This document shows, one piece after another, positions 1,993 through 63,671 of a stretch of DNA of 64,000 nucleotides. The position numbers were made by a program, and so were the translations under genes. Under the pieces are notes generated by a model. That model was not told the DNA's origin. It saw nothing but the letters and a program-made list of their open reading frames with translations, and ran no database searches. The stretch is from Cyanophora paradoxa CCMP329. Lineage: Eukaryota; Plantae; Glaucophyta. The stretch covers positions 186,001 to 250,000 of the forward strand of contig QPMI01000560.1 in the NCBI GenBank assembly GCA_004431415.1. The letters run 5' to 3'. The stretch's first letter is position 1. Each line of letters opens with the position of its first letter.

Positions 1993-3564
1993 ATGGATCT
2001 CGGCCTCAAAGACGTGCACGTGCTGATCACGGGGTGCGAATGAGCGCCAGGGCGCGCCGTCGCGGCCAGCCGATCGCGACCGTCGCCAGCGCGCGCGCGC
2101 CCGCGCACGTGCATGTGCCTGGCCAACGTTTCGAGCGCCGGCGCCCGCAGAGCTAGCGGCGGCATCGGCATCGAAACAGCACACGCGTTCTTGGCGCAAG
2201 GCGCTAAGGTCAGCGCGCACTACAACACGCAGGTCCGTGTCGCGCCGCCGTCGGCGCGTCTCGCGCGTCCGCCTGGCCCTGATCATGACCGCGCGGGCGC
2301 TCAGATCGGGGAGCTGGGGGCGTTGGAGGAGCGGTACGGGCCGGGGCGGGTCTACGCGGTCAAGGCGGACGTACGGAGCGAGGCGGAGGTGCAGCAGGCG
2401 CTCGACGCCGCCTCGGCGAAGCTCGGGCCCGTCCAGGTCTGCCCTGCCCCGCGCACGCTGCCCGCCTGCACGCCCACGGCTCGCGCGCGCGTCTCCCTGC
2501 AGGTTCTCGTGCTCAACCACGGTGCGGCCGTGGCGCGGCGAAGGGCACGCGCGCGGGGCCGCCATTGCGGGGCGCCCCCCGCGGCCGGCTCACGTCCGCG
2601 CGCGCGGGGGAAGGGATCTTCCCGGCGACGGACGTGCTGCTGAAAGACATGTCACTCGAGCAGTGGCAGCGCACCCTCGACGTGCGCCCCGCCCCCCGCC
2701 CCGCCCCGCCCGGCGTCCCACCCCGCCCGGCTCTGCTCCTCGAACGATTTGATCATGACGCCGCGGTGGCCGCAGGTTAACCTCACGGGCTGCTTCCTCT
2801 TCGCGCGCGCCTTCATGCGGTGTGCTACGCCCTGCAGGAGGGCCCCTGGCCCCCGAGGCAGCACGCCATGACCCCGGCCTGGGCCTGGGGCGGCGGGGAG
2901 CAGGCAGGTGACGGGGGAGATGAGCAACGTGGCGGTGGTCCTCATCGGCTCCACCAGCGGTCTCTTCGGGGAGGTCGGCCACGCCGACTACAGCTCCACC
3001 AAGGGCACGCACGCCCGCCCCCCGCCCCCTTAGCCGGCCCCCGAGGCCCCGTGACGACCCCCGCAGCCGCCCTGCACAACGGCTTCATGCGGACCCTCAA
3101 GAACGAGGCGCGCCGGGGCCCCCGGGCGCCCCGCGATCGACGTCGGAAAGCTGAGGCCGGCGCAGATCTACCACGTGAACCCGCGGGGCCGCGTGAACAC
3201 CGTGGCTCCCGGCTGGGTCCTCACCAAGATGGCCGAGGAGGCGCGCCCTCGCGATCGCCCTCCCCGCCCAACCGCGAGAGGCTCGAGCGGGGCGGGGGCG
3301 GCAGGCTGTGGGGCGGGACCCCGGGGTGCTGGACCGCGCCTGCTGCACCATCGCCATGCGCAAGGTCGCCGCCCCCGCCGACGTCGCCGTCCGCCCGTAC
3401 CCCCCAACCCCCGTGGAAGCTGCGAGGCGCCTCCGAGCTCCCCGCAGAACGCGGTGCTCTTCCTGGCGTCGGGTCGGGCGGCGGGGCACGTCTCGGGGAC
3501 CGTCCTCGAGGTCACGGGGGGGATGGAGGGCCGCCTCCTCCACCCCCCGGCCGCCCCCTCCTAG
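1993..3564 (+). CDS. Short-chain dehydrogenase/reductase (SDR), 10 introns
   Basis: Spliced product reads MDLGLKDVHVLITGASGGIG (TGxxxGIG), ADVRSE, VLNHG, VNLTG, IGSTSG, YSSTK (YxxxK), RVNTVAPGWV, GHVSGTVLEVTGG. Confidence 0.9.
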
Positions 3565-3650: not shown

Positions 3651-5457
3651 TCAACTCACGGGAGGGAGGGGCGGCGGCGCATGCCGGGAAGGGGCAGGTC
3701 GGTGGGCAGGAGGGCGGCCCCCTGGGGGGCCGGCGGGGGCGTCGGGGGCTGCCGCCTGTGGCCCCGGCGGGGGCGGGGCGGGCCCGGGGGCGTGTGCGGC
3801 GCCCCGAGGGCCTCGCGGTAGGAGCGGGGCGGGGCCGGCGGGGCCGCCGCCGCCGCCGCCGCCATTGCCGCCGCGAGGAAGCTCTCCGCGGGGGCGTCCC
3901 CGGCACCGGCGAGAGCGCCGGCGCCCGCTGCGGCCCCCGCGCCCCGGGCGGCCCCTGCCCAGCGGGGAGCGGGGCGGCCTGGCGGCGGGGAGCGGGGAGG
4001 GGCGGCCCGGGGCGAGGCCTCTCCCAGGAAGTCCTTGAGGCTCATGCGGCGCGGCGCCGCCCGGGGTGTCCCATGCGGCGGCCCGCCCCGGGAGGGCGGG
4101 GTCTTCGCCTGGGCCGGGGTCGTGGGCGTTGCGGCCCGCTCGGAGGCGCTGCTGGCGGCGGGGAGCCCGGGGAGGGGGCCGGGGAGCCCCACGCGGGGAA
4201 CCGGGAGAGGGGCCGCCAGGGGGACGCTGGAGTGCCGGCGCGCGAGCCGCCGCGTGAGGGCCCGCCCCGCCGCGGCGTCTCGAAGTCCGCGTCCTGCTGC
4301 GCGCGCGTGGGCCGCCGCCGGGCCCGCGCGGGCGCCGGCGGGGCTGGGGCCGCACCTCGGGCTCGGAGGGCCGGTGGCGGGGGAGGGGCGGGGGAGGGGG
4401 CCTCCTCGGGCAGGCTGCCCTCGAGCTCGGCGGCGCTGGCGGCGGAGGGCGTGCCGGCGCGCAGGTCCAGCGAGGCATCCGAGGCCGCCCCGCTGCTCTC
4501 CGGCGAGCGCGAGCGCCCCGCCGCCTCCCGCCCCTCCCGCCCCCCGCCCGCCCCCGGCCCCTGGCCCGCGCGCGCGTTAGGGACGGGCCCCTGGCCGGGA
4601 AGGGGCACGCACGAGGGGCGAGGGGACGAGGAGGAGGGCGCCGCCGTGCGGGCCGCCCCCGGTCCAGTGCCATCCCACGTGCGCGTATATCGGCTGCGTC
4701 ATCGGCGCGCTCGCCGGCGGCCCCCGCGGTGCCCCGCCGTCCCAGCCCGGCAAGCACGCGATTGGCGGACGGCCGGCCGCAGGCGGCAGGCCGAAGGGGC
4801 TCAGCGAGCTCAGCGGGCCCAGCTGCAGCTGCAGCGGGCTCGTCGCGATCGGCGGCAGCTCGAGGCTGAAGGCGGGCGGCGTCGGGCAGCGCTGCCGTGA
4901 CCTCACATTCTCCTCTTGGAGCTTCGCCAGCGCCTGCAGAGCAGAAGGCAACATGTCACGGCGCGCGCTCGCGAGCTCGCGTGCCTGCGCATGCGCGCGG
5001 CGGACCTGCCGGGCCTTTTGGATGACGTCCGCGCGGTGCGTGCGCTCCGGCTCGACCCTCGTCTCTGAAAGAATGACTGCGGCGCGCTCCAAGCCGACAC
5101 GCGCCCGCGCTTCGTCGCGCGAGCTGATGAGCGCGGCGAGGAGCGATTCGTGCAAGAAGAGCCATTCTGCGGCCTGAGAGCCGCGCGAGATCAGCTCCCG
5201 AGCCTCCGATTCCATCGCAATGCGCTGCACGCGGCCGAGGATCGTCGAGAATCAGGGGCGTGCGCTGGCGGGAAGACCTTGGGGCTCACCTCGAGGGCCC
5301 GCGCGGCCTGCTCGACCTCGCAGACGCAGTGGAATACGTAACCGGAGAAACTGAAGCCGTCGCGAGGCGTGCAGCGGCCGTGGTGGAGCAGCTCGCAGGA
5401 AAGGTGGAGCAGCCTGCGGATCGCGCGCGCGCCCCGCCTTTCCATCTCAAAGCGCAT
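3651..5457 (-). CDS. Unknown Pro/Ser-rich protein (spliced; ends approximate)
   Basis: Protein-like exons (MRFEMERRGARAIRRLLHL..., EWLFLHESLLAALISSRDE, ALAKLQEENVRS) separated by intron-like segments, then a low-complexity tail. Confidence 0.4.
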
Positions 5458-5660: not shown

Positions 5661-8600
5661 ATGGGCGTTCGCGGACTTTCCACGTACTTGGAAAAGCAGG
5701 GCGATGCCATCGCAACGCAACTGGACCTTGCAGCGGTGCCGGACCCCCCGATCGCCCCCTCTGCCGAACTCCCCCCAGCCGCTCATACGCGTGTGTACAG
5801 GAGGCTGCCAAGGCACCTGGCGGCCTTGGCTTGATCATCGACCTCAACAACGTTGCCTACAACCTCGTCGCGGAGGCGGAGGTGAAGGCCGCGCGCGATG
5901 CGAAGGCGAGTCCCACCGCGGCGGTCATCCTGAACATCGCGGGCGGTGAGTCTATCGACGGCCGCCCCGGCCGCGCGCTGGTCTCTAGCTACGCGCGGTC
6001 GACGCGCGCGCGACGTCTGCGGCCTCCGCGCTGACGCGTCGGTCCGGTCCCATCGGAGTCAATCCCGTCTGACGCGTCGGTCCGGCAGGCGAGTACGATC
6101 TGATCGAGCAGCATGTCATCGAGTACTTCGGGCGGCTGTGCGCGGCGGGCATCAAGCCGCTGTGCTTCCTCGATCCGGCACAAGGGACGGACGAGGACGA
6201 GCGGCAGAAGTTCGACACGTGGGCGAGGCGGCACATGGACGACCGTATGCGCGCCCTCGAGGTGCAGAAGTGGTGCGCCACGGGCCGCGGCCTCGCCACG
6301 GCGGCCGGCGGGGGGCGGAACGGTGGCAACGGGGCGCGCCACTTCACGCTGCCGCCGCTCGCCATGCGGCAGGTCGTCCGCGCGCTGCAGCGCATGCAGG
6401 CGCGCCGCCCTCCCTCCCGCCCCCGCGGGATCGCATCCGCGCCGGCGTGACCGGGCGGGCGCAGATCCACGTGCGGATGTGCGTCGGGGAGGCGGACCTG
6501 CAGCTCGTGCACGAGATGCAGCGGCACAGCGCCTTCGCCGTCGTGCGCCCCGCGCCCGCCGCCGCCCTGGGCCCCGCGCTCACGGGCGCCGCCTCAGGTG
6601 AGCGACGACAGCGACTTCGCCGTGATCCGCGGGTCGCGCTGGATCCCCGCGCGGAGCCTGGCGGTGGGCGAGGCCGGCGTGCGGGCGGCGCTGGTGACGC
6701 CCGCCGCCGTCGCCAAGGCCCTCAACCTCTCCGAGGCCGCCCTCGCCGAGCTCGCCGCCGTCCGCCCCCGCCGCCCCCGCCCCGGCCCCCGCCGGCCCCG
6801 TAGACCTGACGGGCGGGGGGACACGCAGTTAGTGGGGAACGACATCACGGGGGCTGCTGTGGAGTCGCTGGGCGTGCTGCGGGCCGTCGGGGTCTTCGCA
6901 CCGTACGGGCGTCCCCAGGTCGAGGACGTCGCCCGCTGGATCCGCCAGATGCCCGCCCGCAGCGCCTCCACCTCCCCCGCCCTCCGCGGTCCGCCCCGCG
7001 CCCCGGCCCCGCGGCCCGCCCGCCCCGCGAGGCTCAGGCCGCGCAGACCTGCTGGCGGCGCACGGGGAGCTGCGGGAGGCCTGGCAGAAGTCGTCCCTCT
7101 TCTACGCCGGGCGCCTCCCCGCCGCCCCGCCCCTCCCGCCCCCGGAGCGGGACCGCTGGAGCGCCCTGGAGGAGGGCATGGCGGCGCTCATCCTGCCCGG
7201 GTACTCCCTCGCGGTCGCCCGCCACGGGCGCTACTGGTGCAGCCCGGCGGTGGAGTGCTGCGCGTGCGCCGACGGGGCCTCGCCGCTCTGCCACGAGCTG
7301 CTCGCGCCGCTGCGGCAGGTGGCCTACCGCCTCCTCGACCGCCGCGCCGTCGAGGAGCGCTCGGCCCCCGCCGGCGCGTGGGCCCTCGCCCCGCGCCTCG
7401 CCCCCGCGGCCGCCCCGGGGGCCCTCCCGCCCGCCGTGGAGGCCGCGCTCGCCGCCGTCCCCTCCGCCTGGCACGCCCTCCTGGAGTGCCACCGCGGCGG
7501 CCCCGCCCGCGCCCGCGCCCTCGCCGCCCTCTGCCACACCCACCTCCTCGCCCTCCCCGGCGCCCCCGCCGCCCTCCCCGAGCTCCCCGCCGGGCCCCTC
7601 GCCGCCCCGGCTCTTCTCCTCCGCTTCTTCCTCTCCCTCGTCCCCGCCCGCGGCATGGACCTCACGCCCCGCGAGTGGTCGGCCCTGCTCCTCACCGTCG
7701 CCGCCTGCGCGAGCCCCGCGGGGGGGCCCATACTCGAGCGCGCACGCCGGCAGCTCCTCGCCAACGCCGCCGCCGCCCTCTCCGCCGCCCCCGGGGCCCG
7801 CCGCCCGAGCTTCCGGAGCCTGCAGGTGGCGGCGCGCTGGCAGGCGTGCGCGGCGGCGTGCTCGGCCCTCGGGCAGCTGCTGTGCGAGCCGGCGTTCTTC
7901 GGCGAGCCGCGCTCTCTCTGGAGCGGCGCCGCCTTCCAGGCCTTCCTCGCCGACCCCCTCGCCCCGGGCATCCCCGACGACGTCCTCCGCGGCGCCGCCG
8001 CCCTGCGCGCCGCCGTCGCCGCCGGCTTCCCGCCGGGCGCGGGGGAGCACGGGTCGCCGCTGCGGGTGTTCCTGGTGGAGAGCGCGGCGGCGGTGTGGAT
8101 CCAGGACGAGTCGCCCTCGTCGGTGTACGCGGCGGCGCAGCACGGGGCCTGCTGGGAGGCCGTCGAGGCCCTCTGGGACGAGGAGGGCGACTCGTCCGCC
8201 CCTTCTTGCTTGCTCTCTCGCTTGTTCCTCACTTCCTCGCTCGCGCAGGGACGAGGACGTGGAGGCGATGCTGGAGGAGGCGGCGCGGGCGGGGCGCCCC
8301 GAGGGGGGGGGGGACGCTCTCCTCGAGCCGCCCCCCGAGCTCGCCCCCCCGGGGCCCCCGCCCGCCGCGGGGGACCGCCTCCCCATCGACGGCCACCGCG
8401 AGGAGATCGTCGAGTACATCCGCACGCACCGCGTCACCTGCATCCAGGGCGAGGCGCGCCCTCCCGTCCCATCCCTTCGGCCTTCGTCCTCTGAGCTGAT
8501 GCGATCCGGTCCCTCCAGACGGGCTCGGGCAAGTCCTCGCGGGTGCCCCTGTTCCTGCTGCAGGACGCGCGGGCGCTCGGGGAGCCCGTCAACATGGTCA

Positions 8601-11600
8601 TGACCCAGCCCCGCCGCATCGCCGTTCGCTGCCCCGCCCCCGCCCCCGCCCCGCCCCCCGCCTTCTCCCCGGCTCACGCGCCCCCTCCGCCCGCAGGCGA
8701 TGTCACTGGCGAAGCGCGTGGCGGACACGCTGGGCGAGGAGGTCGGCGGTGCGCGCCGCCGCCGCCTCTGCCGCCGCCGGCCGCCCCTCGGAGAAGCTTG
8801 CCTGCCGAGGAAGCGAGGACGACGCTTAACCTTCTTCTAGTATTTAGTCTTTCAGCCGAAACTTCAGCATAATTTGTTATGTGGTCACCTCCCAGCTCTC
8901 GCTGACCGCCGCGCCCGCGCGCAGGGACGGTGGGCTTCTGCGTGTCCCGCAACCGGAAGACCTCCTCCCGCACCCGCCTCACCTACGTCACCGGTCCCCG
9001 CCCCCGCCCCCACGCCCCTCCTCGCCGCCGTCTCACCGCCTTCCTGGCAGTGGGGTACCTGCTACAGCTGCTCTCGCACAAGCCCGAGGAGGCCTCGCGC
9101 TACACGCACGTCCTGCTGGTGCCCCCCGCCCCCCCCCCCTCCCCCCCCTCCCCTTCCCTCCGCCCTCCCCTCCGCCCCGCCCCTCCTCCCGCCGCCCCCG
9201 ACCCCCCGCGCAGGACGAGATCCACGAGCGGAACGTGGACGCGGACCTCCTCTCGCTCCTCCTCAAGGTCCTCCTCCGCGGCCACCCCTCCGTCAAGCTC
9301 GTCATCATGGCCCGCCCCGCTCCCCTTTGCTCTCATCTTTCTTCTTCGCCCCTCTTATCTTTCCTTGCAGTCGGCGACGCTGCAGGCGGACCTCTTCTCG
9401 CGGTACTTCGCGGAGCTCTCGCCGGACGGGGCGGCGCCGCCGCCCATCTTCGTCGGCGCCGCGCGCTTCCCCCTCGAGTTCCTCTACCTCGACACCCTCG
9501 CCGCCCGCTTCCCCAACCTCGCCGAGCCGGCCCGCCGCGCCGCCTCCCACTTCCCCCGCTCCGGCGCCCGCGCCCTCCCCTCCGACGGCGACGCCCGCCG
9601 CGCCGGCTTCTCGGGGCGGGCGGCGCGGGAGGCGGGGCGCCTGCCGAAAGCTGAGATCAAGCGGGAGACGTACGGGCTGGCGACGGCGCTGCTCGGGCGC
9701 ATCCTCCTCCCCGGCCAGACCGTCCTCGCCTTCCTGCCGGGCGTCGCGGAGATCGCCTCGCTGCAGACGAGCGTGCAGGAGGGCCTGCCGGGGGCGTCGG
9801 ACCCGGCGCGCCTCCACCTCGTCATCCTCCACTCGATGGTCTCCAAGGAGGAGCAGGAGGCCGCCTTCGCGCCCCTCGCCCCCGGCGTCGCCCGCCTCAT
9901 CCTCGCCACCAACATCGCCGAGTCCTCCATCACCCTCCCCGCCGTCCACTACGTGCTGGACTTCGGCCTGCACCGCCACCTCGTCCTCGACAAGGCCCGC
10001 GGCATCCAGTGCCTCACCCTCACCTGGTGCTCCCGCGCCTCGTGCAAGCAGCGGGCCGGGCGCGCGGGGCGGCTCTTCCCCGGCACCGTCGTGCGCTTCA
10101 TGCCGAAGGAGTTCCACGACACGGCCCTGGCGGACTTCGACGAGGCGGAGATGCTGCGGGTCTCCCTCGAGCACGCCGTCCTCCGCGTCAAGCTCCTCTT
10201 CGCCCGCTTCGGGACCGTCGCCGAGCTCCTGCGCCAGTCCGTCGAGTCCCCTTCGGCGGAGGAGGTCGCGTACGCGCTGGACGAGCTGCACCGGGCGGGG
10301 GCCCTCACGGGCGCCGGCGAGGCGAGCGAGGTGACGCTGTTCGGGCACCTCGCCGCCGTCATGCCGGTGGACCTGCACGTCTCCAAGCTCGTCCTCTACG
10401 GCCTGCTGCTCCACCGCGAGTGCGACGCGCTCTGCATGGCGGCGGCGATGAGCGTCCAGGACCCCTTCTCCCTCCCCATGATGCAGTACACCCCGGACAT
10501 CCGCGCCGTCCGCCCCTTCCGCTTCGCCCGCCCCGCCCGCTTCGCCCTTCGTGCAGCTCACCGGCCGCCGCGCCGCGCAGTACTGCGCCGACCTCGAGAA
10601 GAACTTTCGCGCCCGCATGCACTACGACGCCGGTGCGCCCGCGCGCGCGCCGCGGCCACCTCGCCCGCCCGCCCCGCCCCACCGCCGACGCCCTGAGCGT
10701 CGGGCAGGCGAGTACAGCGAGCTAATCGCGTACCGCAACCTCTGGATCGGTGGGCGGCCCGCCTTTGCCTCCGCCCCGCCCTACTTCGCCCCCCCAGCGC
10801 TGACGCGGGGGGCGGGGGCAGCGTGGACGCGGTCGCAGCGGTCGCGGGAGTGGGCCCACCGCGCCTCGGTCTCCTTCGAGCGGATGAAGGCCTTCGACGC
10901 GACGGTCGCCGACCTCGCGACGCACTTCATCGGCTTCCTCTCCCGCAACGGCGTCGACGTCGAGCGCCTCCCCGGCCTCCAGGCCATGTCCCAGCGCTGG
11001 CGCGACGACCCCGGTCCGCTTTATCCCAGCCCCGCTCAGCCCCCGCCTCGCCTCCGCTTAGGCTTCTCCCCTCAGACGGCGGCGGCTGGACGCGGGACGC
11101 CTTCGTGCCGGACACGCGCCCGCTGAAGGCGCTCCTCGCCCTCGCCTCCCGCCCGGGCCTCTTCCTCCGCGCCACCCTCCCCGAGGGCAAGAAGGTCGAC
11201 CGCCCGCTGCGCTCCATGCGCGAGCTCGGGCTCGACCCGGCGCGCACGCTCGTGGTGGGCGTCTCGGTGAACCGCCCCGGCGAGCTCGGCTCGGGCCGCC
11301 TCGCCCGCCTCCTCGGCGACCTCGTCGGCGTCGACGCCGAGCGCGTCGAGGCCGCCGGGCGCGACTCCCCCGGCTCCTACTTCCTCCAGCTCCGCGCCCC
11401 GGACCGCCCCCCCGGGGCCACCCAGCGCCAGGCCGGCCTCCTCGGCGCCCCGCCGCGGCTGCTGCAGCGGGGGCGGGACTCGCCGGTCGGGGGCGGCCGG
11501 CCGGCCTCGCCGGGGGCGCCGGCGCCCCCGCAGGGGGAGCTGCTGCGGGACCTGCCGCCCGACGGGAAGCTGCTGCGGCAGCTCACCGCGGGGCTCGCCT

Positions 11601-14600
11601 TCGGCGCCAAGTTCGTCGTACCCCTTGAGGCCCCCGCCCCCGGGCCCCCGGGGTCGGCCTCGCCCGACGAGCCGGCCGCCACCATCGCCAACATCGGCCA
11701 GCCCCTCACGTTGAACTGGAAGGTGCCGCCCCGCCCGCCGGAAGCCGGCGCGCGTCCTCGTCGTGGCCCTGCCGGCTGACCCCGCCGCGATCCGCGGCCC
11801 GCGGGCGCGCAGGTGCTGCACCCGGTGGCGCAGGCGCGGCCCTACTGGCGCTCCCCGCTCTTCGCCGCCTGCGAGTTCCGCCCCGGCCTCGACATCTGGG
11901 TCCGCACGTGCCCCGCATCCCCTCCCCTCGCCTCTTCTCCTTCCGCTGAGGCCGCCGGGGCGGTCGGGCAGGCGGTGGCGGCGCAGGCGCAGGCGACGGA
12001 GTCGGGGAGCTCGGTGCGCGTCGCCGGCGTGAGCGTGCTGCCCCCCGAGGGCCGCTTCGCGGAGCTGCTGCTCCTCGCGGCCGCCGCCTCCGAGGCCGAC
12101 CGCGGCGCCCCGCTCCGCCTCTACGTCGACTCGTCCTTCTCCCGCATCCACTCCTTCGCCCTCCCCCGCTCCTCGGCCGTCGTCCCCTTCGCCCCCTTCA
12201 TGCCCCCGCTCCACGCGACCGTCGCCGCCGTCAACCGCGTCCGCGCCTGCCTCTCGGCCTGCTACAGCGCGGGGGCCTGGCCCAAGGCCGGCGAGGCCAA
12301 GGAGGCACTCGACGCCCTCCTCGCCTGCGCCCCCTCCGCCCCCTTCGACGAGGAGCGCGGCAAGGGCCCCAGCAAGCGCAAGCAGCGCCTCGCCTCGTAC
12401 AAGTGGGTGCTGCTGCCGCTGGCCCCCCCCGAGGCCGCCGGCGAGGGCGGGGGCTACGCCTTCCTGCCCCCCTACGTGGGCCCCATCGAGGAGCAGGACA
12501 TGCCGCGCTTCCTCGCGGGGGAGGACCCGGCCGCCCTCCTCGCTGCCGCCTCCCGCGCCGGCCGCGCCGGCCCCGCCCTCCCATCCCCCGCCGGGGGGCC
12601 CGGGGTCGGGGACTGGGACTACGAGGGCGAGGCGGGCCCCGCGGAGGCGTACGGGGCGGCGGAGGCGGGCGGCGGGGCCCCCGTGGAGGCCTCCCGGCTG
12701 GACAAGAAGACGGCGAAGATGCTGCGCGACGTCGCGCAGCGCTGCGCGGGGGCCGGCCTCCCCGCCCCGTCCCTCGTCCAGGCGGGGCCGGCGGCGGCGC
12801 GGCTCGTGTGCGGCGGCGCGGTGCTGGCGGAGGCGCGGGGCAAGACCCTCCAGAAGGCCCTCCGCGACGCCATCAACGGCGGCATGGCCCAGGCGCGCGC
12901 TCCGGTTGTTGACTGCGGCGCCGAGCGCCGCCCCGCTGACCCCGGGCGGGGCAGGTGAAGGCCGGGAAGCGGGGGGCCGGGGCCCACGCGCAGGCGCAGG
13001 GGGCGCCCCCGCGGCGGTCCCCGCGGCGAACGCGGCGGCGCTGGCGGGCCCGCGGCCGCAGCCGCCGCCCGAGCTGGGCCTGGACGGGCGGGGGGCGGCG
13101 CTCTACGCCGAGCTCGTCCTCGAGTGCCGGGGCCGCGGCCTCGGCGAGCCCTCCTTCCGCATCGTGGAGGGCGGCCACGGGGCCTGCCGCGTCCTCGTCG
13201 CCTTCGCGGGGGCCCGGCCCGTGGAGGGCAACGGGGGCAAGGGCGGGCCCGCCGCCGCCGCCAAGGTCGCCATCAACAACGCCCTCCAGGCCATCCGCCG
13301 CGGCGCCTCCCCGGCCCCGGGCCCGCCCCGCGCGCCTCGGCCCCGGCTGCGCCGCAGGGCCCGCTGGCGCCCCCGCCGGGGCGGCAGGCGGCGCTCCCGG
13401 CGACCCCCGCGGGGCTCGACAAGAAGGGGGCCGAGATCTTCCGCCGCATCGCCGCGGCGTGCGACTTCCACGGGCTCGGGGCGCCGCGCGTGGAGGGCGC
13501 CGGGGGCGGCGGCTGGCGGGTGCTCGTGAAGGAGGCCGGGGTGGACTCGCGGGCGCCGCACCCCAACGGGGCCCTCGCCGACGCCGCCCAGCGCCTCCAG
13601 AACTGGGCCCGCGCCCGCGGCCTCCCCGAGGCACCCGGCGCCGCGCCCCAGGGCTTCCCGCCTACCGCCTCCTCCTCCTTCGGAGGCGGCGGTCCCAGCG
13701 CGCCCCCGCCGATCCCGCGGCTCGTCTCCGGCGGCGGGGGCGGGGGCGGGGGCAAGGCCGGGGGGGCCTCGCCGGCGTCGGTGGAGGAGGCGCTGGGCCC
13801 GCGGGAGCGGGAGGAGCTGGAGCAGCTGGCGTCGGACGCCTCGTGGGCCGGACTCGAGCGGCCCGTGCTCTCCCTCGCGCCCTCCCCCGGGGACGGCTCC
13901 GTCCGCGTCGTCGCCAAGCTCCCCGGGCTCGGGGCGCTGCCCCCGGGGCCGCCCCTCCCGGAGGCCTACTTCGGGCGGGGCCCGACCTCCGCGCCGCCGC
14001 CCGCGACGCCCTCCGCCGCGCCGCCGACGCACTGCGCCGCGCCCAGGGCCTCGACGCCCCGGCCCCGCCCCCGCCTTCTCCGCCCCGCCTTCTCCGCCCC
14101 CGCCCCGGCGCCCAAGGCCAAGCCGCAGCAGGCGAAGCAGCAGCAGCAGCAGGGCAAGCCGGCGGCTGCCTCGGGGGCGGCGGCCGGCGGGCAGCAGCTC
14201 TCGAAGAAGGCGGAGAACGTGCTGCGGAACCTGGTGGAGAAGTGCCAGCGGCTGCGGGTGGCGCCCCCCGCCCTCTCCTACCTCCCCGACGGCTCGGTCA
14301 GCGTCGAGGTGCCGCAGCTCGGCGTGGCGGCGCGCGGCGCGGGCAAGCACGCCGCCGAGGACGCCCTCCTCGACGCCTGGGCCGTCGTCCAGACCCTCCG
14401 CTCCGCCGGCGGCGGCGGCGGCGCGCAGAAGCCGCAGGCGGCGAAGGCCGAGGCTGCGGCTGCAGCTGCTTCGGGAGGGCGCGCGGCGGGGGCGCCGGGC
14501 CGCGGCCTCATGCCCCTCGCGCAGGCCGCCCCGCCCGCCCCCGGCGCCCCATCCACCGGCAGCGGCGGCGGCTCGCGCGGGCGCGGGCGCCGCGGGGGCG

Positions 14601-14665
14601 GTGGGAGCGGCAAGGGCCCCGCCGCTGCCGGCGGCGGCGGCGCCGATGCCGCCTTCGACGATTGA
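5661..14665 (+). CDS. Fusion of Asteroid/FAM120 (XPG-type PIN) nuclease-like domain, DExH-box RNA helicase and tandem dsRBD-like repeats
   Basis: PIN part: MGVRGLSTYL, IIDLNNVAY, GGEYD, CFLDP, GEAD, SDDSDF. Helicase motifs after splicing: LPIDGHREEI, QGETGSGKS, TQPRRIAA, DEIHER, MSAT, FLPG, LHS, ATNIAESSIT, QRAGRAGR, plus an HA2 region. PIN-to-helicase junctions splice in frame. One or two frameshifts in C-runs near 13.0-13.4 kb. Confidence 0.8.
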
Positions 14666-15300
14666 TCGATCCCCGCCCGCCCCTCTCCCGAGCCCCGATC
14701 TGCACGCTTCTGTATTCTTAGCCTTTCTTTCAGTAGCTATAGCCACCAGCTAGGGAGCCCCGCGGGGCAGCGCTAGCGCTGGGGATCCCAGCTTTTTGGC
14801 AGCCGTCAGCCGTTTCCTATTTGATTGATGTGTGTCACAGCCTGGCAGTGTGTAGCTTCAGATGATCGGATCGTTTCGGCCCGGCGGCAGCGGCAGTACT
14901 CAGATCCATTGATTGCAGTGCCAGCAGTTCAGCAGCGATTCAGTGACAGTGATCAGTTGTGCCCCGCTGCAGTTGGCCCAGTGGTGCCACGGTGCATGTT
15001 TTTGAACAGCAGCAGCACATGTCCGCATGATCATGAGCTGCCAGCAGGCTGGCAGTCATGACTCAGTGCCGCAGTGCCACTGGGCCATGCCCGGCCATGA
15101 TGGGGATTCAGGTGGTTGTGAGCCAGTGAGTGCAGGTCTAGGTCAAACTGCATGCACATCGCCCCGCGGCCCCGCCCTGGATCCGGAGGCCCCTGAAGGC
15201 GGCCTCGCCCGGGCCATCGGCTCCGAGGCTCCGAAACAGAATTCGACAGTGCGAGAATTGAGTTGTTCGAATAGAAATGTCCACTTCAGGCGTCCTGCAG

Positions 15301-17981
15301 CTAGAGGAGGGATCGGAGGGCGGGGGCGGAGGCCGGGTCGACGCCGGCGGCGGCGAGGCCGGCGGCGAGGGCCGCAGCGAGGCGGGCGCGGCGCTCCGGG
15401 GTGAAGGCGGCGGGGCAGAAGGGCCCCGGGGCCGGCGGGGCGGCCTCGGGACGGCGGCTGCGACGGCGGCCTCGGCGAGGGCCTTGTACTGCTCCCGGGA
15501 GAGCTGCCCCGCCCGGAAGAGGGCCTGCAGGGGCGCCTTGGCGAGGCCGTACGCGTGCGCCTTGGCCGCCTTGCGCCACGCGTGGCCGGCCTCACCGCCC
15601 CGGCCCCCGCCCCTCCTCTTCCCCGCCCGCTCGCTGCGGGGCGACGAGGAGCGGGCCGAGTGCGGGGGCGGCGACCGCGCCCGCTCCTCCTCCTCCTCCA
15701 GCGGCCCCGGCGGGGGCGGTGGGGGCGGCGGCGACGGCGGGCGCCCCGAAGCGACGCGCGCCGCCGCCGGCGGGGCTGGAGGGGCGTCGGGAGGCGCGGA
15801 GGGAGGGGCGGCGGGGCGGGCGGTGGGGTCGTGGGAGGGCGGGCGGTGGGCGGGGGGCGCGAGGGGCGGGGGCTCGCGAGGCGGTGGCTGGGCAGGGGGG
15901 GCGGACGTGGGGCGAGCGACGGGAGGCGCAGCGGCGGAAGCGGTGGGAGGGGCCGGCGCCTCGCGGCGCGGGGGCTGGGCGGAGGGGCCCCCTGCGGGCG
16001 CCGGCGGCGCGCCGGGGCGTCGGAGGGCGGGGAGGGGGCGCGGGGTGCTGGGGGCGGGCGGTGGGCGCCCTGTGCGGGCGCGGGGCGGGAAGAGGACGCC
16101 GGTGAAGGCGCCGCCGCCGGGGGCGCAGCGGGCGCCGAAGAGCGGGCCCGCGGAGGGCCCCGGGGCCGCGGAGGACGATGCAGCGGCCGCCGGGGGGCCC
16201 GGGGGAGAGGAGCGGCGGCCGGCGAGGCGGCCGCGAGGAGGCGGTCCCTCACCTGAGCGGGGCGGGCCGGCGGGGCCGCCACGCGGGCCCCGGAGGGCGG
16301 CGCCGCCGCTGCCGGGGCGGAGGGCGGGGCGGAAGCCGGGCGGGCCGGGGGGCGGAGCTGGAGGAGGGGGCGGACGGGGGCGCGGGCGGGCGGACGAGGC
16401 GGAGGGGCCCTCGGGCGGGGGCCCGGAGGCGGGGGATGTGGGGGTACAGCCGCAGCTGCTCGGTAAAATACGCGGCGGAGGCGGCGGCCGAAGGGGGCGC
16501 CGCGGGGCCGGCCCGGAAGAGGAGGCCGGGGCGGGGCTGGAGGAGGCCGGGGCGAGGCGGGAGGAGGAGGCCGGGGCGGGCCCGCGGGGCCCCCGGCGGG
16601 CTCCCGCCGGCCCTGCAAAGGCGCCGGGCGCGGGGCGGGGGCGGCGGCGGGTGCGGAGAGCCGGAGGGAGGCCCCGGCGGCGGCGGCAGCGAAGAGGCGG
16701 GAGGTGGAGGAGGCGGCGGGGCGGCCGCGCGGGGCGGGGCGCCCCGCACCGGCGGCTGCGGCGGCGGCGGCGGCGCGCTGGCGGTGGCGCTCGGCCTGGC
16801 TGAGGTCCCGCCACGCCGCCGCCACCTCGTCCTCCTCCCCCGAGTCCCCTCCGCCTCCGCCGCCGCCCTCCGCCCCGGCCCGCCGCCCGGCCCGCCCCCA
16901 GCGGCAGCGGCGCCTCGGAGCGGCGCTGCCCGCCGGGGCCGCCGCCCGCGGCCGGAGGCCGGGACGAGGAGGACGAGGCGGAGGCGAAGGCGGCGGGCGG
17001 GGCGGGGCCGAAGCGGGCGAGCGAGCCCCGCGCCTGCGCGCCACGGCCGGCGGCAGGGACCGCGCCCGTGCGCGCCAGCGCCGCGCGCTGCTGTGCGGTC
17101 TGCCGCCGCCGCTGCCGCAGCGTCCGCCGCGCCGCGGCGCGCGCTGCGCGGGGGCGGCGTCGGCAAGGGGGCGGCGGGGCGGAGTCGGCGGCGGGCACCT
17201 TCCTGGGTGAGCTCGCTGGGGCCCGGGCGTGCCCAGGGTTCGGGTGCGCGCAGCCGCCTCCGCTCGGGGATGCCTGCGGCGGGGCCGCGTCAGCCGGCGC
17301 GGGCGGGGCGGGGCGGGGCGGGGCGGGGACCGTCGGCGGGGAAGCCGAGCGCGAAGGCGCGGGCCTCGGCGACGGACTCCTCCTCCTCCTCCTCGGGGTC
17401 GGGGAGCCACTCCTCGTCCCCCCACGCATCCTCCCCCGACGAGTCGTCCTCCTGCGGCCCCGCCCCGCGTGAGGCCCGAGCCCGGCGGGGGCGGGCGGGG
17501 CGGACGCGCCAGCATCGCCTCGTCGTCCTCCTCGCTCTCCTCCTCGTCCTCGCTGAGGTCCACGCCGAGCTCCTCCTGGTTAGCCACCGGCTGGTTCCGC
17601 TCCTCCACCCGCACCCGCTTCCGCTTCCGGCCCTGGCCCCGCGTCACGTCGAGCCAGGCTCGGGCGGGCGCGAGGGCAGGGGCGCGCGCCTCGCTCTCGT
17701 TGATTATCGCCCTGAAGCGCTGCTTGCTGCGACGCACGTCAGCGTCACGCGGCGCACGCAGCCGGGCCCCACGCGCACCACATCGGACACGTGTTCTCCT
17801 TCTCCGCCCATTGCTCAAGGCAGTTCAGGTGAAAGCGGTGCGAGCAGCTCTCTGGCCTGGCGCGGTCGGCCGAGCTGATCTCCGTCCAGCAGATCGGGCA
17901 ATCCTCTTCCTTGCCCTCGTCCTTCTCGGCTTCATCAGCGCTCCGCTTATTTCCTCGCGGGCTGCCAGACCCGTCCGCCAT
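15301..17981 (-). CDS. RING-finger protein with C-terminal SRI-like motif (PHRF1/SCAF11-like)
   Basis: N-terminal CPIC...CSHRFHLNC...W...NTCPM(C)KQRF RING, an acidic tract, a low-complexity middle, and C-terminal AKAPLQALFRAGQLSREQYKALA. Confidence 0.7.
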
Positions 17982-18296
17982 TCCTCTGCAGCGTTCTGAG
18001 CGCTCTGGAGCTCAACACTGAGCAGCGGCGCCTCTGCAGCGGCGCGGGAGCCACGTAAGGGGGAGCGGCGGCGAGCGGTGCAAGGAGTGAGCGCGGCGCA
18101 CCGCCGAGGCGAGCGCGCGCCTTGAGCACGTCGGCTGGCGGCAGTGGCGGGAGGCTTGTTACTTGCTGCAGAACGCACGCAGTTCACGACGCGCTGCTAC
18201 GACTGAGGGGACTGCTGAAACGGCTGCGCTGGCGCCAGAGAGACTCAACTCGAGGGGGGAACGAGCGTGGGCCGCGTACACAAATTCGGCAGCACG

Positions 18297-20602
18297 ATGC
18301 TCCCGGCGTTCGCTGTGCCGCTTCCGGCAACCACCTCTCACAGCCACAGCGGAATGCATCGCGTTGCGGCGATGGCGGTTTCGTCGGCCGCGCGCATCCG
18401 GCTGCCGACGCGCGCGGTCCAGATCGGACGGCCGTTCCACATCGTCGCCCGGGATCTCGCTTTCTGCGCAAGCCGCGCGTTCGGTGCTCAGGTCGTGCGG
18501 CCGGTCGTGCCGCACGCGGCCTTCTCGACGGTCGGCGGCCGTCCCATCACCGCCTCCCTGCAAGAGCGCATCGCTGCGGCGCCCAAGGCGAAGGCGGGGT
18601 CGGTCGAAATCGTGAATCTGAACGCTGAGGCGCCGCTCGCGTGGGAGGGCGACCTCTTCATCATCGGCTTCTTCACCGACGCGGAGTACTTCCCGGCGCC
18701 CGAGAACTCGGTCCCAGTGAAGGCCACGGAGGCGCTCGATGGCCATTTCGGCGGCATCATCTCCGAGCTGATCGCTGAGGGCGAGTTCGAGGGCAAGCCC
18801 GGCCAGGTCGCGGTGCGCCGGGCCTTGCACGTGCGCGGAGTGCGGCCTGCCGACGGCGGGGCGGGCGGCGGGGCGCGCAGACGGGCCGCGTGAGCGGGAA
18901 GGGCCCCGTGCGGAAGGTCGCGCTGGTCGGCCTGGGCGCCTCGGCGGACATGACGATGGACGGCTGGCGCAAGGCCGGCGCCGCCGTCGCCGACCTGGCG
19001 AAGAAGAACAAGGGCGCGAAGCGGGCGTGCTTCTACCTGCCGGTGGGGAGCCGCTCCTTCGCGGGGCCGAACGCGGTGCAGGCGCTCGTCGAGGGGGTCA
19101 CGCTGGGCCTCCACGAGGACACCCGCTTCAAGTCCGAGGCCGAGCTCAAGAAGAGCAAGCCCACGCAGCTCGCCGCCGTGCGCCCCGCCCCGCCCGCCCC
19201 GCCCGCCCCAGCGCCCCCGCCGGCCGAAGCGACGGGCCGGGCAGCTGGACCTGCTCGGCTGGGGCTTCTACGACGCGGCGCCCATCGACAAGGGCGCCAA
19301 GATCGGCGAGGCCGTGCGCTCTGCCCCGCCCAGCACTCCGCCCCCCCGCCGCACCCGTCCCCGGCTCACCCGCCGCCCTCAGGTGCTCCTCGCGAAGGAG
19401 CTGGTCAACGGCCCGCCCAACAAAGTGACCCCCTCCCTCCTCGCCGAGGCGCGCCCCCCCTCCCCGCCCCTCCCCGCCCCTTTCGTCGTTGGAGATCGAC
19501 CGCGGGGCGCAGACGGCGCGGAAGGTGGCGGCCGAGGGCGGCCTGGAGGTGAAGGTGCTGGAGAAGGCGGAGTGCGAGGCCCTCGGCATGGGCCTCTTCC
19601 TCGGCGTCTCCGCCGTGCGCCCTCGAGCAGCGCCCCCCCCCCCCCCCCCCCTCGCCGGCCTGACGCGGGGGCGGGCGCGCGTGCGCAGGCGAGCAGCGAG
19701 CCGCCCAAGTTCATCCACCTGACGTACACCCCCAAGGGGGAGGTCACCCGCAAGCTCGCCATCATCGGCAAGGGCCTCACCTTCGACTCGGGCGGCTACA
19801 ACCTCAAGGCCGGCGCGGGGAGCATGATCGAGCACATGAAGATCGACATGGCGGGGAGCGCGGCGACCCTCGCCGCCGCCCAGGCCATCTCCAAGCTGGC
19901 GCCCGAGGGCGTCCAGGTGCACTTCATCGTGGCGAGCTGCGAGAACATGATCGCCGGGGGCGGCATGCGGCCGGGGGACATCCTCACCGGCTCGAGCGGG
20001 GTCACCGTCGAGATCAACAACACGGATGCGGAGGGGCGGCTGACCCTCGCCGACGCCATCGTCTACGCGGAGAAGCTCGGCGTCGACTCGATCGTGGACT
20101 GCGCGACGCTGACGGGGGCCTGCATGGTGGCGCTGGGCCCCGACATCGCCGGCCTGTTCGCGTCGAAGGACGAGCTGGCGCGGGAGCTGGAGGAGGCGGC
20201 GAAGAAGGCGGGGGAGAAGCTCTGGCGCCTGCCCCTCGAGGACAAGTACGCGGAGATGAACAAGTCCCAGATCGCCGACATCAAGAACTCCGGTGCCCCG
20301 TCCAATCCAACCCAGTTCGACGCGGCCCGGGGTGACGCGGCGGGCGGGGCAGGGGGCCGGATGGGCGGGGCGATCACGGCGGCGCTCTTCCTGAAGCACT
20401 TCGTCAAGGCCGTGCCCTGGGCCCACATCGACCTCGCCGGGCCCGTCTTCAACGAGAAGGCACCCGCCCCGCCCCGGCCCCGCACGCCCGCCCCTCGCTG
20501 AGCGGGGCGGCCCGGGGCGCGCAGGTGGGCGGGGCGACGGGCTACGGCGTGCGGACGCTGGTGAACTACGTCCTCGGCAAGGACGCCACCATCGACGGCT
20601 AG
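18297..20602 (+). CDS. pepA: M17 leucine aminopeptidase with probable plastid transit peptide
   Basis: Motifs [66 protein letters not shown]. About 90-aa basic/hydroxylated N-terminal extension starting MLPAFAV. Confidence 0.95.
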
Positions 20603-28076: not shown

Positions 28077-31000
28077 TCAGAACTCGAGGAAGATGCGTTT
28101 CTTGCCGTTCTCCCCGATGCGGTACTCCAGGCTCCGCGTGTTGGGGAAGAAGGGCAGCTGGGGGGGAGCGGGCGTCGGGCAACGAAGAGGGGGAGGGGCG
28201 GGGAGGGGAGGGCGGACCGGCTGGCCGACGAGGGCCTCGTAGTTGCGGCGGATGTGGGCGATGACCGAGCCCTGCGGGTCGCCCCGCAGGAGGTAGTCCC
28301 GGTCGCTCGGGATGTGCAGCGCGAAGCGCTTGTCACCCTGCCCCGCCGCGCTCACCCGCGCGATGCTCACCAGGTCCACCCGCCAGTCCAGCTTCATCGT
28401 CCTGCGGCCCCGCGTGAGCGCTTGGAGCCGGCGCGCGGGGCGGGGCGCGGGGCGGGGCGCCGCACTTGGGGGCGAGGGCGTAGACGGCGCGGTCGGTGAC
28501 GGCGATGACCTGCGGCTCGGGCTTGCCGCTCCGGTAGCCGATCTTCTCGAGCTGCTCGCTGTACGTGACGGTCTCCTGGGTGCCGCCCTCGGCGCGCAGG
28601 ACGCGCTGCAGGGCGGGGTTGGCGCCCAGGCGCAGGTGGTCCCCGCTCTGCTGCAGCGTCGCCCGCAGGCTCGCGTTCGCGGCGAGGAACTGGCTCGACG
28701 TCGCCTCGCCCTCCGCCGGCGAGCCCGTCGACCGCGGCGGCTGCTGCTGCGCCGCCGCCGCCGCCGGCATTGCCAGCGTGACGTCGCCGGGGCCGGCGGG
28801 GCGCTGGAAGGCCGACTGCTGGGGGCCCGGGCCCGGGGCGGGCGGGGCCGGCGCCCTCGGGGAAGTCGAGGCGGCGGGGGGCGCGGGGCTGCTGGATGCG
28901 CGACTGCACGCTCGCCTGCAGCGCCTCAAGGCTCGCCCCGGCGGCAGCGAGCCCGAGCCCTCCTCGAACGAGCGCCGCCCCGCGAACGGCCCCTGCGGCG
29001 GCTGCAGCGGCGCCTGCATCGTCGGCTGCGGCTGCAGCGGCGCCTGCAGCGGCTGCGGCGGCGGCGGCGGAGGCTGGGCGGGCTGGAGGAGGGGCGGCGG
29101 GGCGCGGAAGGCGGAGGAGTGCGGGTGGGCCTGGACGGGGGAGAGGGCGCGGGAGCGGCGGGCCTCCTCGAGGGCGGCGCGCTCGCGGGCGAGCTCCTGC
29201 ACGATCTCGCGCTCCTTGGCGAGCTGCCGGCGCCGGCGGCGGGCGCGCTGGCGCCAGAGGACGTAGCGCCACCACGCCTGGATCTTGAAGGCGGCCGCGT
29301 GGCGCCGCTGCATCACCTCCATCGAGCGCGCGTTCGGGCGCTGCCGCTGCGGGAGCCGGCTCGGGTGCTGCACCCGCGGCGGCGACGCCGAGTACCCAGG
29401 GGCCGGGGCCTCATCGCGGGCCCCAAGCTGGCTGCTCTTGGGGCCCGCCACGGAGTTTTTTGGCTGGGCCTGGGTCTGGGGCGCCCGCTGCTGGGAGGCG
29501 CGCATGGGGGAGACCCCCGTGTTGGTCCGGTTCCGCACGGGGCTTGTGCTCACCGACGGCGGCACGCTCTCCCCGAACGCGCTCCCCGCCCGGCTCCCAG
29601 CCGGCCGCCCCTGCCGCGACGCCCGCACCGGCACCGGCTGCCGCGCCGCCTGCACCCCGTACGGGTCCTGCCCCCCGCCGCCCCCGCCGGGCCCGCCCCC
29701 GCCGCCGCCGCCCGAGCCGGGGAAGGTGACGCGGTTGCTCTTCGGGCTGGGCGGCTTGTTGTCGACGCCGAGGAGGGCGCGCACGCTCTCCACGCCGGCC
29801 CGCAGCAGCTTCATCGCGGGGTTCTCCTCCTCCTCCGGCTGCTGCTGCGCCGGGTACGTCGGCGTGTACCCCCCCGGCGCCCCGTAGGTCCCGATCTGGG
29901 GCTGCTGCTGCGGGGCGTAGGCGCCCTGAGGCGGGGCCCCGTACGCGGGGGCCGGCTGGTACTGCTGCGGCATGCCGTACGCCTGCTGCAGGGCCGCCGT
30001 GTACGGCTGCGCCCCGTACGGTAGCGCACCCGCGCCAGGGGCCGCCCAGACGTTCGGCGCCTGCAACGGCGGCGGCTGCGCGGGGCCGGGCCCGAGGCCC
30101 GGGCCGCCGCTGCGGGAGGCGGCGCCGTAGACGCCGGCGGCGGTCGGGGGCGCGACGCGGGGCGGCTGTGCTGCTCCATGGCCGAGGGGCGAGACTGAGG
30201 CCGCCCGGGCTGGCGGGGCCAGCGGGGCGAACGGCTCCGAGTCGACGTGGATCTGGCGGGCGTCTTGCGCCCCTCGGCGGCGGCCTGCGCGGCGGCGGCG
30301 GCGCGGTCGGCGGCCCTGTCGGCGGCGCGGTCGGCGGCGCGCTCAGCGGCGCGGTCGGCGGCGTCCTGCTGGGCGGCGGCCTCCTGGGCCTGCTGGAGGA
30401 GCTGCTGGGAGAGGCCCGAGGGGGTGCGGGCGACCCACTTGTTGTCCAGCTCCGCGATCTCCAGGTTCGCGTCCTCCAGCTCGGCCCGCAGCAGGTAGAT
30501 CTCGTCCGTCGTCTCGCCCCGGGCCGCGAGCTGGGCCATGAGGGAGGAGAGCTGCGCCGCCGTCTCCTGCAGCATCTCGACCTTGCGCGTGTCGGCGGCG
30601 AACTCGAGGTTGTCGAGCTCGCCCTTCAGCTCGTCCTGCTCGTTCCGCAGCGCCTCGAGGTTCGTCAGGATGCCGTCCATCGTCGCCCCGATGTTGTGCA
30701 GCTCCATCTCGTACCGCGACTGCCCGCCCGCCCGCCGCGTCAGAGAGGGGCGGGGCGGGGCGAGCGAGCGGGGGCGGGCGGCGGGCTCGCCTTCTCCTCG
30801 CGGAGGGCCTTCATGGAGGCCTCGAGCTCGGTGGTGCGGCGGATCTGGCTCACGGGCGCCCCGCCCGCCTCCCGCGTCGCCGCCACCCCCTCCGCCTTCT
30901 CCTTGTGCAGCGCCACCTTGTTCACTGCGCGCGGGGAAAAGGCGTGAGCGCCTGGCCGAGCGGCGCGGGGCGGGGCGGGGCGGGGCGCACTGGTCTTGAA

Positions 31001-36300: not shown

Positions 36301-36436
36301 GCCCCCGGGGGCCCCGCCCCCGCGCGTGGAGGTGCCGCAGGAGTGTCTGCTGGCCGCCGCCCGCACCCTCCGCCCCTCCGTCTCCCCCGCCGACCTCGCC
36401 CACTACGCCCGCTTTGCCGCCATGTCCCGCTCCTAG
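33373..36436 (+). CDS. PEX6: Peroxisomal AAA+ ATPase PEX6
   Basis: VPDISWEDVGGLEEVK, GPPGCGKTLVAKAVA, SVKGPEL, VGESE, PCVLFFDELDALAPARGRTGDSAGVMDRVVSQLLAE (PEX6-typical), LLRPGRFDKLVY. D1 domain degenerate. Confidence 0.85.
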
Positions 36437-62045: not shown

Positions 62046-63671
62046 CTACTGCGGTTGAGGCGGCTCGAGTGGCGGGGGCGGGCAAGGTCCGGAGGGGAGG
62101 GCGGAGGGGGATGGGGGCAGAAAGGATTCGAAGAGGGCTACGAGTGTCTGGAGGCCGAGGATGTACCCCTCATCCCGCTCGCCGGGCAGGGCGCGGTGCG
62201 TGTGCGCGAAGTCGATCATGCGCAGCTCCACGCGGTGCCTCCGCCGCTTCCACTGCAGGCCGCCCCCGACGCGGATCGCTCGCTTGCGCAGCTCGTCCCC
62301 CGCGGCGCCCGTCGCCCGCAGGGGCACCGGCGGCGTCGCCGAGGGCCGCGACGACGCCGAGGCCGACGCTGCCGCGTCGGGCTCCGAGTTGTCGCTGCTC
62401 GAGGCGTCCCCCGCCTCCGAGGCCGCGCACGACGAGGCGCCCGAGCCCTCGCCGTGCCCGTTTCCCTCCCCCTCCTCCCCCTCCTCCCCCGCCTCCGGCC
62501 CCCGCTCCGCGTCCCGCGAGCCCGACGCCGCGCCCGGCGGCCCCGCCGGCGGCTCCTCCCCGTCGTACACCAGCAGCAGGCTACTCGAGTAGAAGCTGCG
62601 CCGCCGCGTCGGCCGCGGCAACCGCGAGGCGCGCGGCGCGCGGCGAGCGGCGCACCGGAACTCCCGCTGGTCCAAGAAGAGCGCGAGCAGCTTGCGCAGG
62701 CGATCCAGGAAGAGCGGCACGAGGTCCGTGCGGTACCTGCGCCCGCCGTCAGCTGTACGTGCATGCCCCGCGCTCCGCCGCTCGCGCTGGACTCGCCTGC
62801 TGCCGTTGTGAAAGTACCGCCGCACGCAGTTCCTGAACGTCTCCTCGTCAAGCTTCTTGCCGAAATGGCGGTCCCTTCGGAAGAAGTTGTGTGCATTCGT
62901 GTCGTACACCTGCTCGTACGCGGGGCTATGAGCTACGATAGAGATTGAGATCACTAAGCGCGGCTGGGGACGCGTGCGCTGCACCTGCATGCCCGTGAGG
63001 CGTACGCCGAGCTTGGCCGACGTCGAGTTGAGACACTTGGCCATCATTGCCGCGATCTTGGCGGGGGGGGCGTCATCGTCGTGCTGACGTATACCCATTT
63101 TCAGATCGAGCACGCATGGCTGCTTCATCCCGCTCGTCAGGTCCTCCAGCAGGATGAATCGTGGGCGAATCTGTCAAGGTCGGTTGCGGGATCTGGTGCG
63201 AATCTAGGGCGGGGAGCTAAGCAAAAGGCATAAAGGATATGTCGCAGCTTCTTGGAGTCCACGGTCCTGAACGGTACACAGCGCGGGATACCCGCCAGGG
63301 CGAGGGCGCGCTCGCGGTCCATCTCAGTGACGAGGGACTTGGAGAGGCAGCTGCGGACTTCCTGCGACGGCGACGAGCCGAGTACAACATCCTCCTCAAG
63401 TTCGCAGCTGCCGAGGTAGGACGGGACAAAAGGCCAGAACCGCCGATGCGCTTTCACGGCTTCGTAGAACTCCCCCTCCGTGGGGATGAAGGGCTTGCAG
63501 ACGCAGTCGGGAGAAGGCTTTAGAAGCCTTCCGTGGCCCGCAACCTGCCGCGCCCGGTGTGAGACCGCATGAATACCCAAGCGCCTTTCCGCGGAACGCC
63601 CAGATTCGCGTCACCTGGTGCTCGTAGTTTCCCAACGTTGCGAAGCCCACGCTCTCGTCCAAAGATGCCAT
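62046..63671 (-). CDS. Inositol polyphosphate kinase (IP6K/IPMK family)
   Basis: [26 protein letters not shown] (PxxxDxKxG), [32 protein letters not shown]. Confidence 0.93.

Follow-up and report, generated by a model that had tools for sequence, protein, structure and literature searches.

We find that a gene of the glaucophyte alga Cyanophora paradoxa CCMP329 encodes what is best read as a single protein, in which a FEN-like PIN nuclease domain is followed by a DEAH/RHA helicase. The gene lies within positions 186,001 to 250,000 of contig QPMI01000560.1 (assembly GCA_004431415.1), a stretch of 64,000 nucleotides that we call the window and in whose coordinates all positions are given. It belongs to a family that is, in our view, real, probably ancient and apparently unstudied, and that stands beside TDRD9/Spindle-E. 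From the N- to the C-terminus the product comprises the PIN nuclease, a helical extension, the helicase, a Spindle-E-like C-terminal region and five repeats, the last of which are probably an extra of this copy. The parts that carry the argument are the following.

5661 to 14665, + strand: protein-coding gene of 21 exons, about 2,450–2,490 residues (hand-built model, public model, contigs)
5661 to 7148, + strand: FEN-like PIN core, residues 1–345, exons 1–7 (family profile, FEN1 alignment, conservation, fold of a relative)
5840 (D39), 6172 (D102), 6489 (E186), 6495 (D188), 6607 (D207), 6613 (D209) and 6841 (D262): acidic sites of the PIN core
7149 to 8024, + strand: helical extension of the N-terminal module, residues 346–637, common to the family (the profile covers residues 1–637)
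8194 to 8248, + strand: intron 7, whose removal links the nuclease and helicase halves in frame (GT..AG, pyrimidine tract, paralog)
8382 to 10743, + strand: DEAH/RHA helicase core and HA2 region, residues 738–1300 approximately (Pfam DEAD and Helicase_C, motifs)
10830 to 12509, + strand: post-helicase region homologous to Spindle-E/TDRD9, without a Tudor match (HHalign, Pfam)

The DNA of the window is GC-rich and eukaryotic in character. In our hand-built model, translation from the ATG at 5661 across 20 introns runs without a stop; 16 introns are GT-AG and four GC-AG, a high share for the GC starts, which lie at 6400, 8454, 9310 and 12893. Residues 1–1917 are identical to tig00021127_g18752.t1, a 2,424-residue EukProt model of the alga that is itself predicted, so that the match is agreement and not proof. 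Nine sequencing runs, none with an RNA label, contain all or part of the gene. Eight were compared: seven are RNA-like, and we take them as likely RNA because their contigs skip introns, while run X8 spans the introns and is DNA-like. Contig evidence was displayed for the introns other than 1, 4 and 5. The likely-RNA contigs have joints at introns 6, 8, 11, 12 and 13, splicing of introns 2, 3, 9, 10 and 14–20 is consistent with the coordinates of the contig pieces, and between 10507 and 11075 the 285 bases of the record equal the summed length of the three exons there. A further set of contig joints, at 92% likeness, was dismissed as low-complexity noise. At 9610 one contig in each of three runs (X1, X2, X4) is short by one base and the long contigs are intact, which probably reflects a short match from another transcript. 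The initial annotation, made from the sequence alone, had read one spliced frame from the start MGVRGL; the stop-free 21-exon model and the identity with the public model bear this out, except that single-base slips in the assembly disrupt the window's frame towards the C-terminus. The motifs IIDLNN, FLD, GEAD, SDDSDF, TVGYLL, DEIH and QRAGRAGR, like the intron at 8194–8248, lie where that annotation had placed them.

Several comparisons support the earlier proposal of an N-terminal PIN domain that keeps its acidic residues; the domain is FEN-like, probably of Asteroid/FAM120 type, and has the full set of seven acidic sites. A PIN profile built from four relatives, with the window protein excluded, matches the window protein at E 4e-23. 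Against solved structures the family profile matches FEN1, EXO1 and Rad2 (best E 8e-11), and it aligns the family's lDg, EaD, DsD and GnD to the acidic motifs of archaeal and human FEN1, one short row of the family alignment used here being partly misplaced. Of the 22 members that cover all seven sites, 18 have an acidic residue at every one. Of two residues of the helical arch, K114 is kept as K or R in 22 of 27 members (the other five being gaps) and R121 in 26 of 27; by spacing we equate them with K93 and R100 of FEN1. An H3TH-type GxD motif and the N-terminal MG are also present. The fold was modelled on the N-terminal 689 residues of a Thecamonas relative rather than on the window protein. 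Its core is confident (predicted local distance difference test, pLDDT, mostly 70–90; overall mean 53) and its helical extension of low confidence, and Foldseek matches the model to FEN1/EXO1 at E ~1e-4, with 31 matches at E<=0.001. Protein Atlas features place the N-terminal region of the same relative with Asteroid/FAM120 (score 0.96). The PIN domain was not detected by Pfam in the window protein, either as exon pieces (18 scanned, with Helicase_C the only clear match) or as the full public model, and XPG_I_2 matched only weakly in 3 of 10 alignment rows (best E 0.045), the window protein being without a hit. Because the acidic sites and both arch residues are conserved and the profile and fold matches are of FEN1 type, the predicted nuclease is likely active. 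With FEN1, EXO1 and XPG it shares the seven acidic sites, the arch lysine and arginine, the H3TH-type motif and the N-terminal MG, whereas the known members of that group act on DNA and have no helicase fusion. Asteroid/ASTE1, FAM120A-C and Mkt1 (the Rad2/XPG subgroup) likewise combine a FEN-like PIN with a long helical extension, but they lack a helicase, and XPG_I_2 is only weakly matched by the present family.

The helicase half, read earlier as a complete DEIH helicase, indeed has motifs I–VI, including a Walker A split by intron 8, DEIH, SAT and a QRxGRAGR motif VI, and is followed by an HA2 region. Pfam finds only DEAD and Helicase_C in the full public model, with HA2_C below cut-off. 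For a second fused copy in the same alga, P0001, the best solved relative is Spindle-E (9nhs, E 1e-74), followed by DHX29 (8e-66). Helicase trees were computed without a mixture model from 130 cores (FastTree) and from 53 and 24 of these 130; three sequences had been removed because of low cover, near-copies as well as redundant HrpA and DHX57 were excluded, and the trees contain no named DExH8 or DHX36. The fusion-family helicases form one clade (100/99) and TDRD9 a separate one (100/99); together with a small unnamed group they unite at 99/98, apart from DHX29/57 and HrpA. The members of the unnamed group (P0019, P0241, P0265) have neither a PIN nor a Tudor match. Grouping the two Cyanophora copies with TDRD9 as orthologs was rejected (approximately unbiased test, p 6.6e-19). 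The resemblance to Spindle-E/TDRD9 noted at the outset therefore stands as one to the nearest named relatives and falls as orthology: judged from its sequence, the helicase clade is distinct from TDRD9/Spindle-E and adjacent to it. The kinship extends beyond the helicase. HHalign gives the post-helicase region 97% over 139 columns against a TDRD9 alignment, with 0.7% for a DHX57/29 control, and a second segment also aligns to TDRD9 (P 0.003); the stretch between the two homologous segments measures about 310 residues in Spindle-E and about 90 here. No CCCH finger was matched in a Pfam scan of the window protein. TDRD9/Spindle-E thus shares with the window protein the nearest named helicase clade, the best solved match (through P0001) and the post-helicase region, but the window protein branches separately, has no Tudor match and adds an N-terminal nuclease. 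The sponge Sycon apparently has both a Tudor-bearing TDRD9 (P0251) and a fused protein (P0183).

The pairing of PIN and helicase recurs in many distant groups of eukaryotes. Among 287 fetched proteins, in which paralogs were drawn from protein collections only, the family PIN profile occurs in 27, always ahead of the helicase Walker A; these 27 include the four profile seeds and the window's own model. It occurs in none of 119 HrpA control proteins. A word-based search with the full-length alignment was uninformative, yielding one seed next to 119 HrpA proteins. Among 1.84 billion representatives a HMMER search with the PIN gave 3,209 matches at E<=0.001, and 61 of the best 150 continue into a helicase; these comprise nine earlier identifiers (five of them profile seeds) and 52 of 141 new ones, several over only the first 30 positions. 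Named fused members come from Cyanophora (two copies), Thecamonas, Sycon, Salpingoeca urceolata, Andalucia, PhM-4, Phytophthora, Lagenidium, Effrenium and Cladocopium, so that the fusion is found in a glaucophyte, an apusozoan, a sponge, a choanoflagellate, a jakobid, a prokinetoplastid, oomycetes and dinoflagellates. Because it recurs across these groups, the fusion is probably ancient and, unless it spread by transfer, may predate the split of the major eukaryote groups, with later losses and splits. In the same alga the copy P0001 is without the C-terminal repeats, and its model apparently skips the H3TH exon; a third model, P0313, is PIN only. Hemichordate and annelid records (P0004, P0179, P0180) hold the helicase only, and nemertean P0320 and similar proteins of 610–670 residues hold the PIN only, loosely grouped with the fused PINs in a PIN-only tree (FastTree, without an ASTE1/FAM120 outgroup, weakly supported) that we take as a hint. 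This suggests that the fusion was split into two genes in bilaterians. Many PIN-less helicase copies in dinoflagellate-like records (P0013, P0189–P0215 and others) suggest an expansion of the helicase in dinoflagellates.

It could be argued that the two halves in Cyanophora are likewise adjacent genes or transcripts, a PIN-only protein that ends through a retained intron 7 at a stop at 8492 and a helicase that starts from the ATG in DVEAM. Some of the evidence points that way: no likely-RNA contig crosses intron 7 with 31 bases on each side, coverage is near zero over 8160–8243 in four runs, and records of PIN alone and of PIN-less helicase exist. Among the best 150 PIN matches, 89 end before any helicase, and PIN-less helicases of the same clade are found in hemichordate, annelid and apicomplexan records and in many from dinoflagellates; unless such records are fragments, each half can occur without the other. 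We did not count the low contig cover at 8076–8243 as evidence for two transcripts. Against a division into two genes, intron 7 has textbook form. It is a phase 2 GT..AG intron whose removal yields EEGDS|DEDVEAM in frame, which at the level of sequence agrees with the initial annotation, and a contig from 7654 halts at its donor (8194) with 11 unplaced letters continuing beyond, the next contig beginning at 8266. Moreover, P0001, whose helicase exon is 61% identical to that of the window gene, keeps 20 identical residues across the junction, and transcript-derived open reading frames of relatives contain the nuclease and the helicase together (P0335 and P0184, each marked as complete, and P0011). 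Because of the identity at the P0001 junction and of these two-half reading frames, a single protein is the better reading, and we regard two separate genes as very improbable.

The fusion has surfaced in the literature before, if only as entries in a table. Supplementary Table S1 of Matelska et al. (2017, PMC5499597) lists at least 14 oomycete proteins with XPG_I and DEAD/Helicase_C, 13 of them also with HA2; one of its rows, ETO59758.1, is also among the PIN matches obtained here and so is of the same family. The table rows give no function, and the main-text passages searched in that paper do not discuss the fusion. TDRD9 and XPG go unmentioned in the passages of PMC12787238 that were searched. 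Our literature search found no description of the family, with subscription papers and bioRxiv supplements thinly covered and the 2017 supplement incomplete. The earlier suggestion of an undescribed architecture therefore holds in that no paper discussing the pairing was found, but not in the strict sense, since the combination is listed for the oomycete proteins. Automatic annotation hides the family: it gives its members names such as spindle-E, TDRD9 or HrpA-like, and the nuclease mostly escapes Pfam.

The protein ends in five repeats of roughly 70 residues each, in a part of the gene where the assembly itself needs correction:

12695 to 12892, + strand: repeat 1, dsRBD-like through similarity to repeat 3
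13005 to 14082: stretch with single-base assembly slips (three from contigs, a fourth probable)
13074 to 13301, + strand: repeat 2, dsRBD-like through similarity to repeat 3
13415 to 13627, + strand: repeat 3, predicted alpha-beta-beta-beta-alpha fold (structure model, pLDDT 91)
13799 to 14047, + strand: repeat 4, second helix in frame only with an extra base after 13972
14198 to 14404, + strand: repeat 5, the weakest (13.6 bits; best shuffle 13.0)
14666 to 15023, + strand: probable 3′ untranslated region (two runs have likely-RNA contigs that stop at 15019 and 15023)

The likely-RNA contigs of all three runs that cover the region (X1, X2, X4) have one extra base after each of 13005, 13314 and 13972. 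The public model avoids the first two slips by dropping 32 and 31 residues, and the base after 13972 puts the second helix of repeat 4 in frame (18.2 bits with it and 11.0 without). A fourth slip is inferred near 14065–14082, where the contigs break and beyond which repeat 5 and the stop at 14663 are in a different frame. When each repeat is scored with a profile of the remaining four, it exceeds every one of about 500 shuffles, repeat 5 barely so. The canonical KKxAK motif of dsRBDs is degenerate in the repeat alignment. Against solved sequences the repeat profile found nothing significant (best E 0.15), with weak rows for ribosomal uS5, and the repeats are absent from all other proteins among 312 fetched. 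On the strength of the structure model they are best called degenerate dsRBD-fold repeats peculiar to this copy. The multi-dsRBD part of the initial annotation thus stands as a predicted dsRBD-type fold, but without a Pfam dsrm hit and not as a feature of the family.

What the protein does has to be argued from what is observed, namely the domains and their order, the conserved catalytic residues, the helicase clade and the spread of the family. DEAH/RHA helicases engage a single-stranded 3′ tail and translocate 3′ to 5′, and FEN-like nucleases pass a 5′ flap beneath the helical arch and cleave it at the junction. Put together, the helicase would move 3′ to 5′ on one strand and peel its partner off as a 5′ flap, which the FEN-like site would then cut, so that one strand of an RNA duplex would be shortened or cleared. 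From the kinship with Spindle-E, small-RNA silencing or RNA surveillance would be the probable setting, and the five repeats of this copy may add binding to duplexes or partners outside the family core. We give about an even chance to such a coupled unwind-and-trim enzyme, with duplex RNA as its substrate and silencing or surveillance as its setting; a role in RNA silencing or antiviral defence, as first proposed, would be argued from kinship. Spindle-E is an active ATPase for which the remodelling of sliced RNA has been proposed (bioRxiv 10.64898/2025.12.12.693873), C. paradoxa has homologs of Dicer, Argonaute and RNA-dependent RNA polymerase together with abundant small RNAs (PMC3700990), and FAM120A binds Ago2 (PMC12345631).

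Several observations weigh against an action on duplex RNA. FEN1, EXO1 and XPG, the relatives of the nuclease with solved structures, are DNA enzymes, no genes of RNA interference occur among the 63 neighbouring open reading frames scanned, and the window protein has no Pfam Tudor match at E<=0.003 that would link it to PIWI proteins. The fold of the repeats is also less than decisive: for repeat 3 a wide fold search gives a dsRBD as top match at a middling Z 7.8 (root-mean-square deviation 1.6 A, 54 residues), with ribosome hibernation factors close behind, in Foldseek dsRBDs lead only at E>=0.056, and Pfam matches none of the five repeats at E<=10. DNA structures are substrates as well for some DEAH/RHA helicases, e.g. 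DHX9 and DHX36. The same fused protein might thus unwind R-loops or flaps on DNA or RNA:DNA hybrids and trim them with its FEN-like domain in repair or replication, in keeping with the DNA enzymes that make up every solved nuclease match and with ASTE1 and FAM120B, which are reported as nucleases in DNA repair (PMC12345631). We consider this unlikely, since the closest helicase kin, Spindle-E, is an RNA helicase of the pathway of PIWI-interacting RNAs (piRNAs) and the accessory domains are of RNA type or neutral, such as the dsRBD-like fold here, S1 in P0245, C2H2 fingers, and R3H in the PIN-less records P0002 and P0221.

Another conceivable role is that of a stand-alone effector against viruses or transposons in the manner of DDX60, the repeats binding foreign duplex RNA that would be degraded without Argonaute. 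DDX60 is an antiviral protein with an N-terminal PIN-like domain ahead of its helicase, although our literature search did not confirm that domain; its helicase is Ski2-like and not DEAH/RHA, and DDX60 would be an independent fusion. The patchy spread, the paralogs in the alga (P0001, P0219 and the PIN-only P0313) and in dinoflagellates, and the variable C-terminal add-ons would suit such a role, as would silkworm Asteroid, which virus and dsRNA both induce and which restricts the virus (PMC10298989). The repeats occur in this copy only, however, and we hold the proposal to be rather improbable. The initial annotation had drawn a parallel with Dicer; on such a reading, a PIN fold in place of RNase III would cut duplex RNA into small RNAs of set size. 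Helicase, nuclease and dsRBD-type domains do share one chain in both, but as a mechanism the parallel is unsupported on several counts. A single FEN-type site cuts one strand and there is no RNase III pair, neither RNase III nor PAZ nor another ruler was found in the Pfam scan of the full public model, the helicase is DEAH/RHA and not of Dicer's class, the repeats are missing from all other fetched members, and the alga already has a Dicer homolog (PMC3700990). A Dicer analogue is therefore scarcely credible, and we retain the unwinding and trimming of duplex RNA as our working proposal.

The gene neighbourhood gives no clue to function. A short-chain dehydrogenase (2113–3561, + strand) lies upstream, and so, in head-to-head orientation and some 450 bases from the start of the gene, does an open reading frame of 212 residues without a Pfam match (4577–5215, − strand). 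Downstream follow a RING-finger protein (15143–18011, − strand) and an M17 leucine aminopeptidase (18297–20501, + strand), and farther away a myosin TH1-like match (28333–29973, − strand), an AAA ATPase (34658–36436, + strand) and an inositol polyphosphate kinase (62046–63128, − strand).

In conclusion, the window gene points to a family of enzymes, apparently unstudied and present in at least five major groups of eukaryotes, in which a 5′ flap-type nuclease is combined with the helicase lineage of animal piRNA silencing. It is possible, though we hold it as a doubtful extension, that the family dates back to the last common ancestor of eukaryotes and constitutes an overlooked, self-contained nuclease-helicase system of RNA silencing or antiviral defence, sister to Spindle-E/TDRD9, that opens duplex RNA and destroys the displaced strand; animal TDRD9 would then be a nuclease-less, Tudor-bearing offshoot, and some bilaterians would carry the halves as separate genes. 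If the family acts on RNA, it would suggest what Spindle-E-like helicases did ancestrally, in a form open to testing, and would give the Asteroid/FAM120 group, which is poorly understood, its first defined partner activity.

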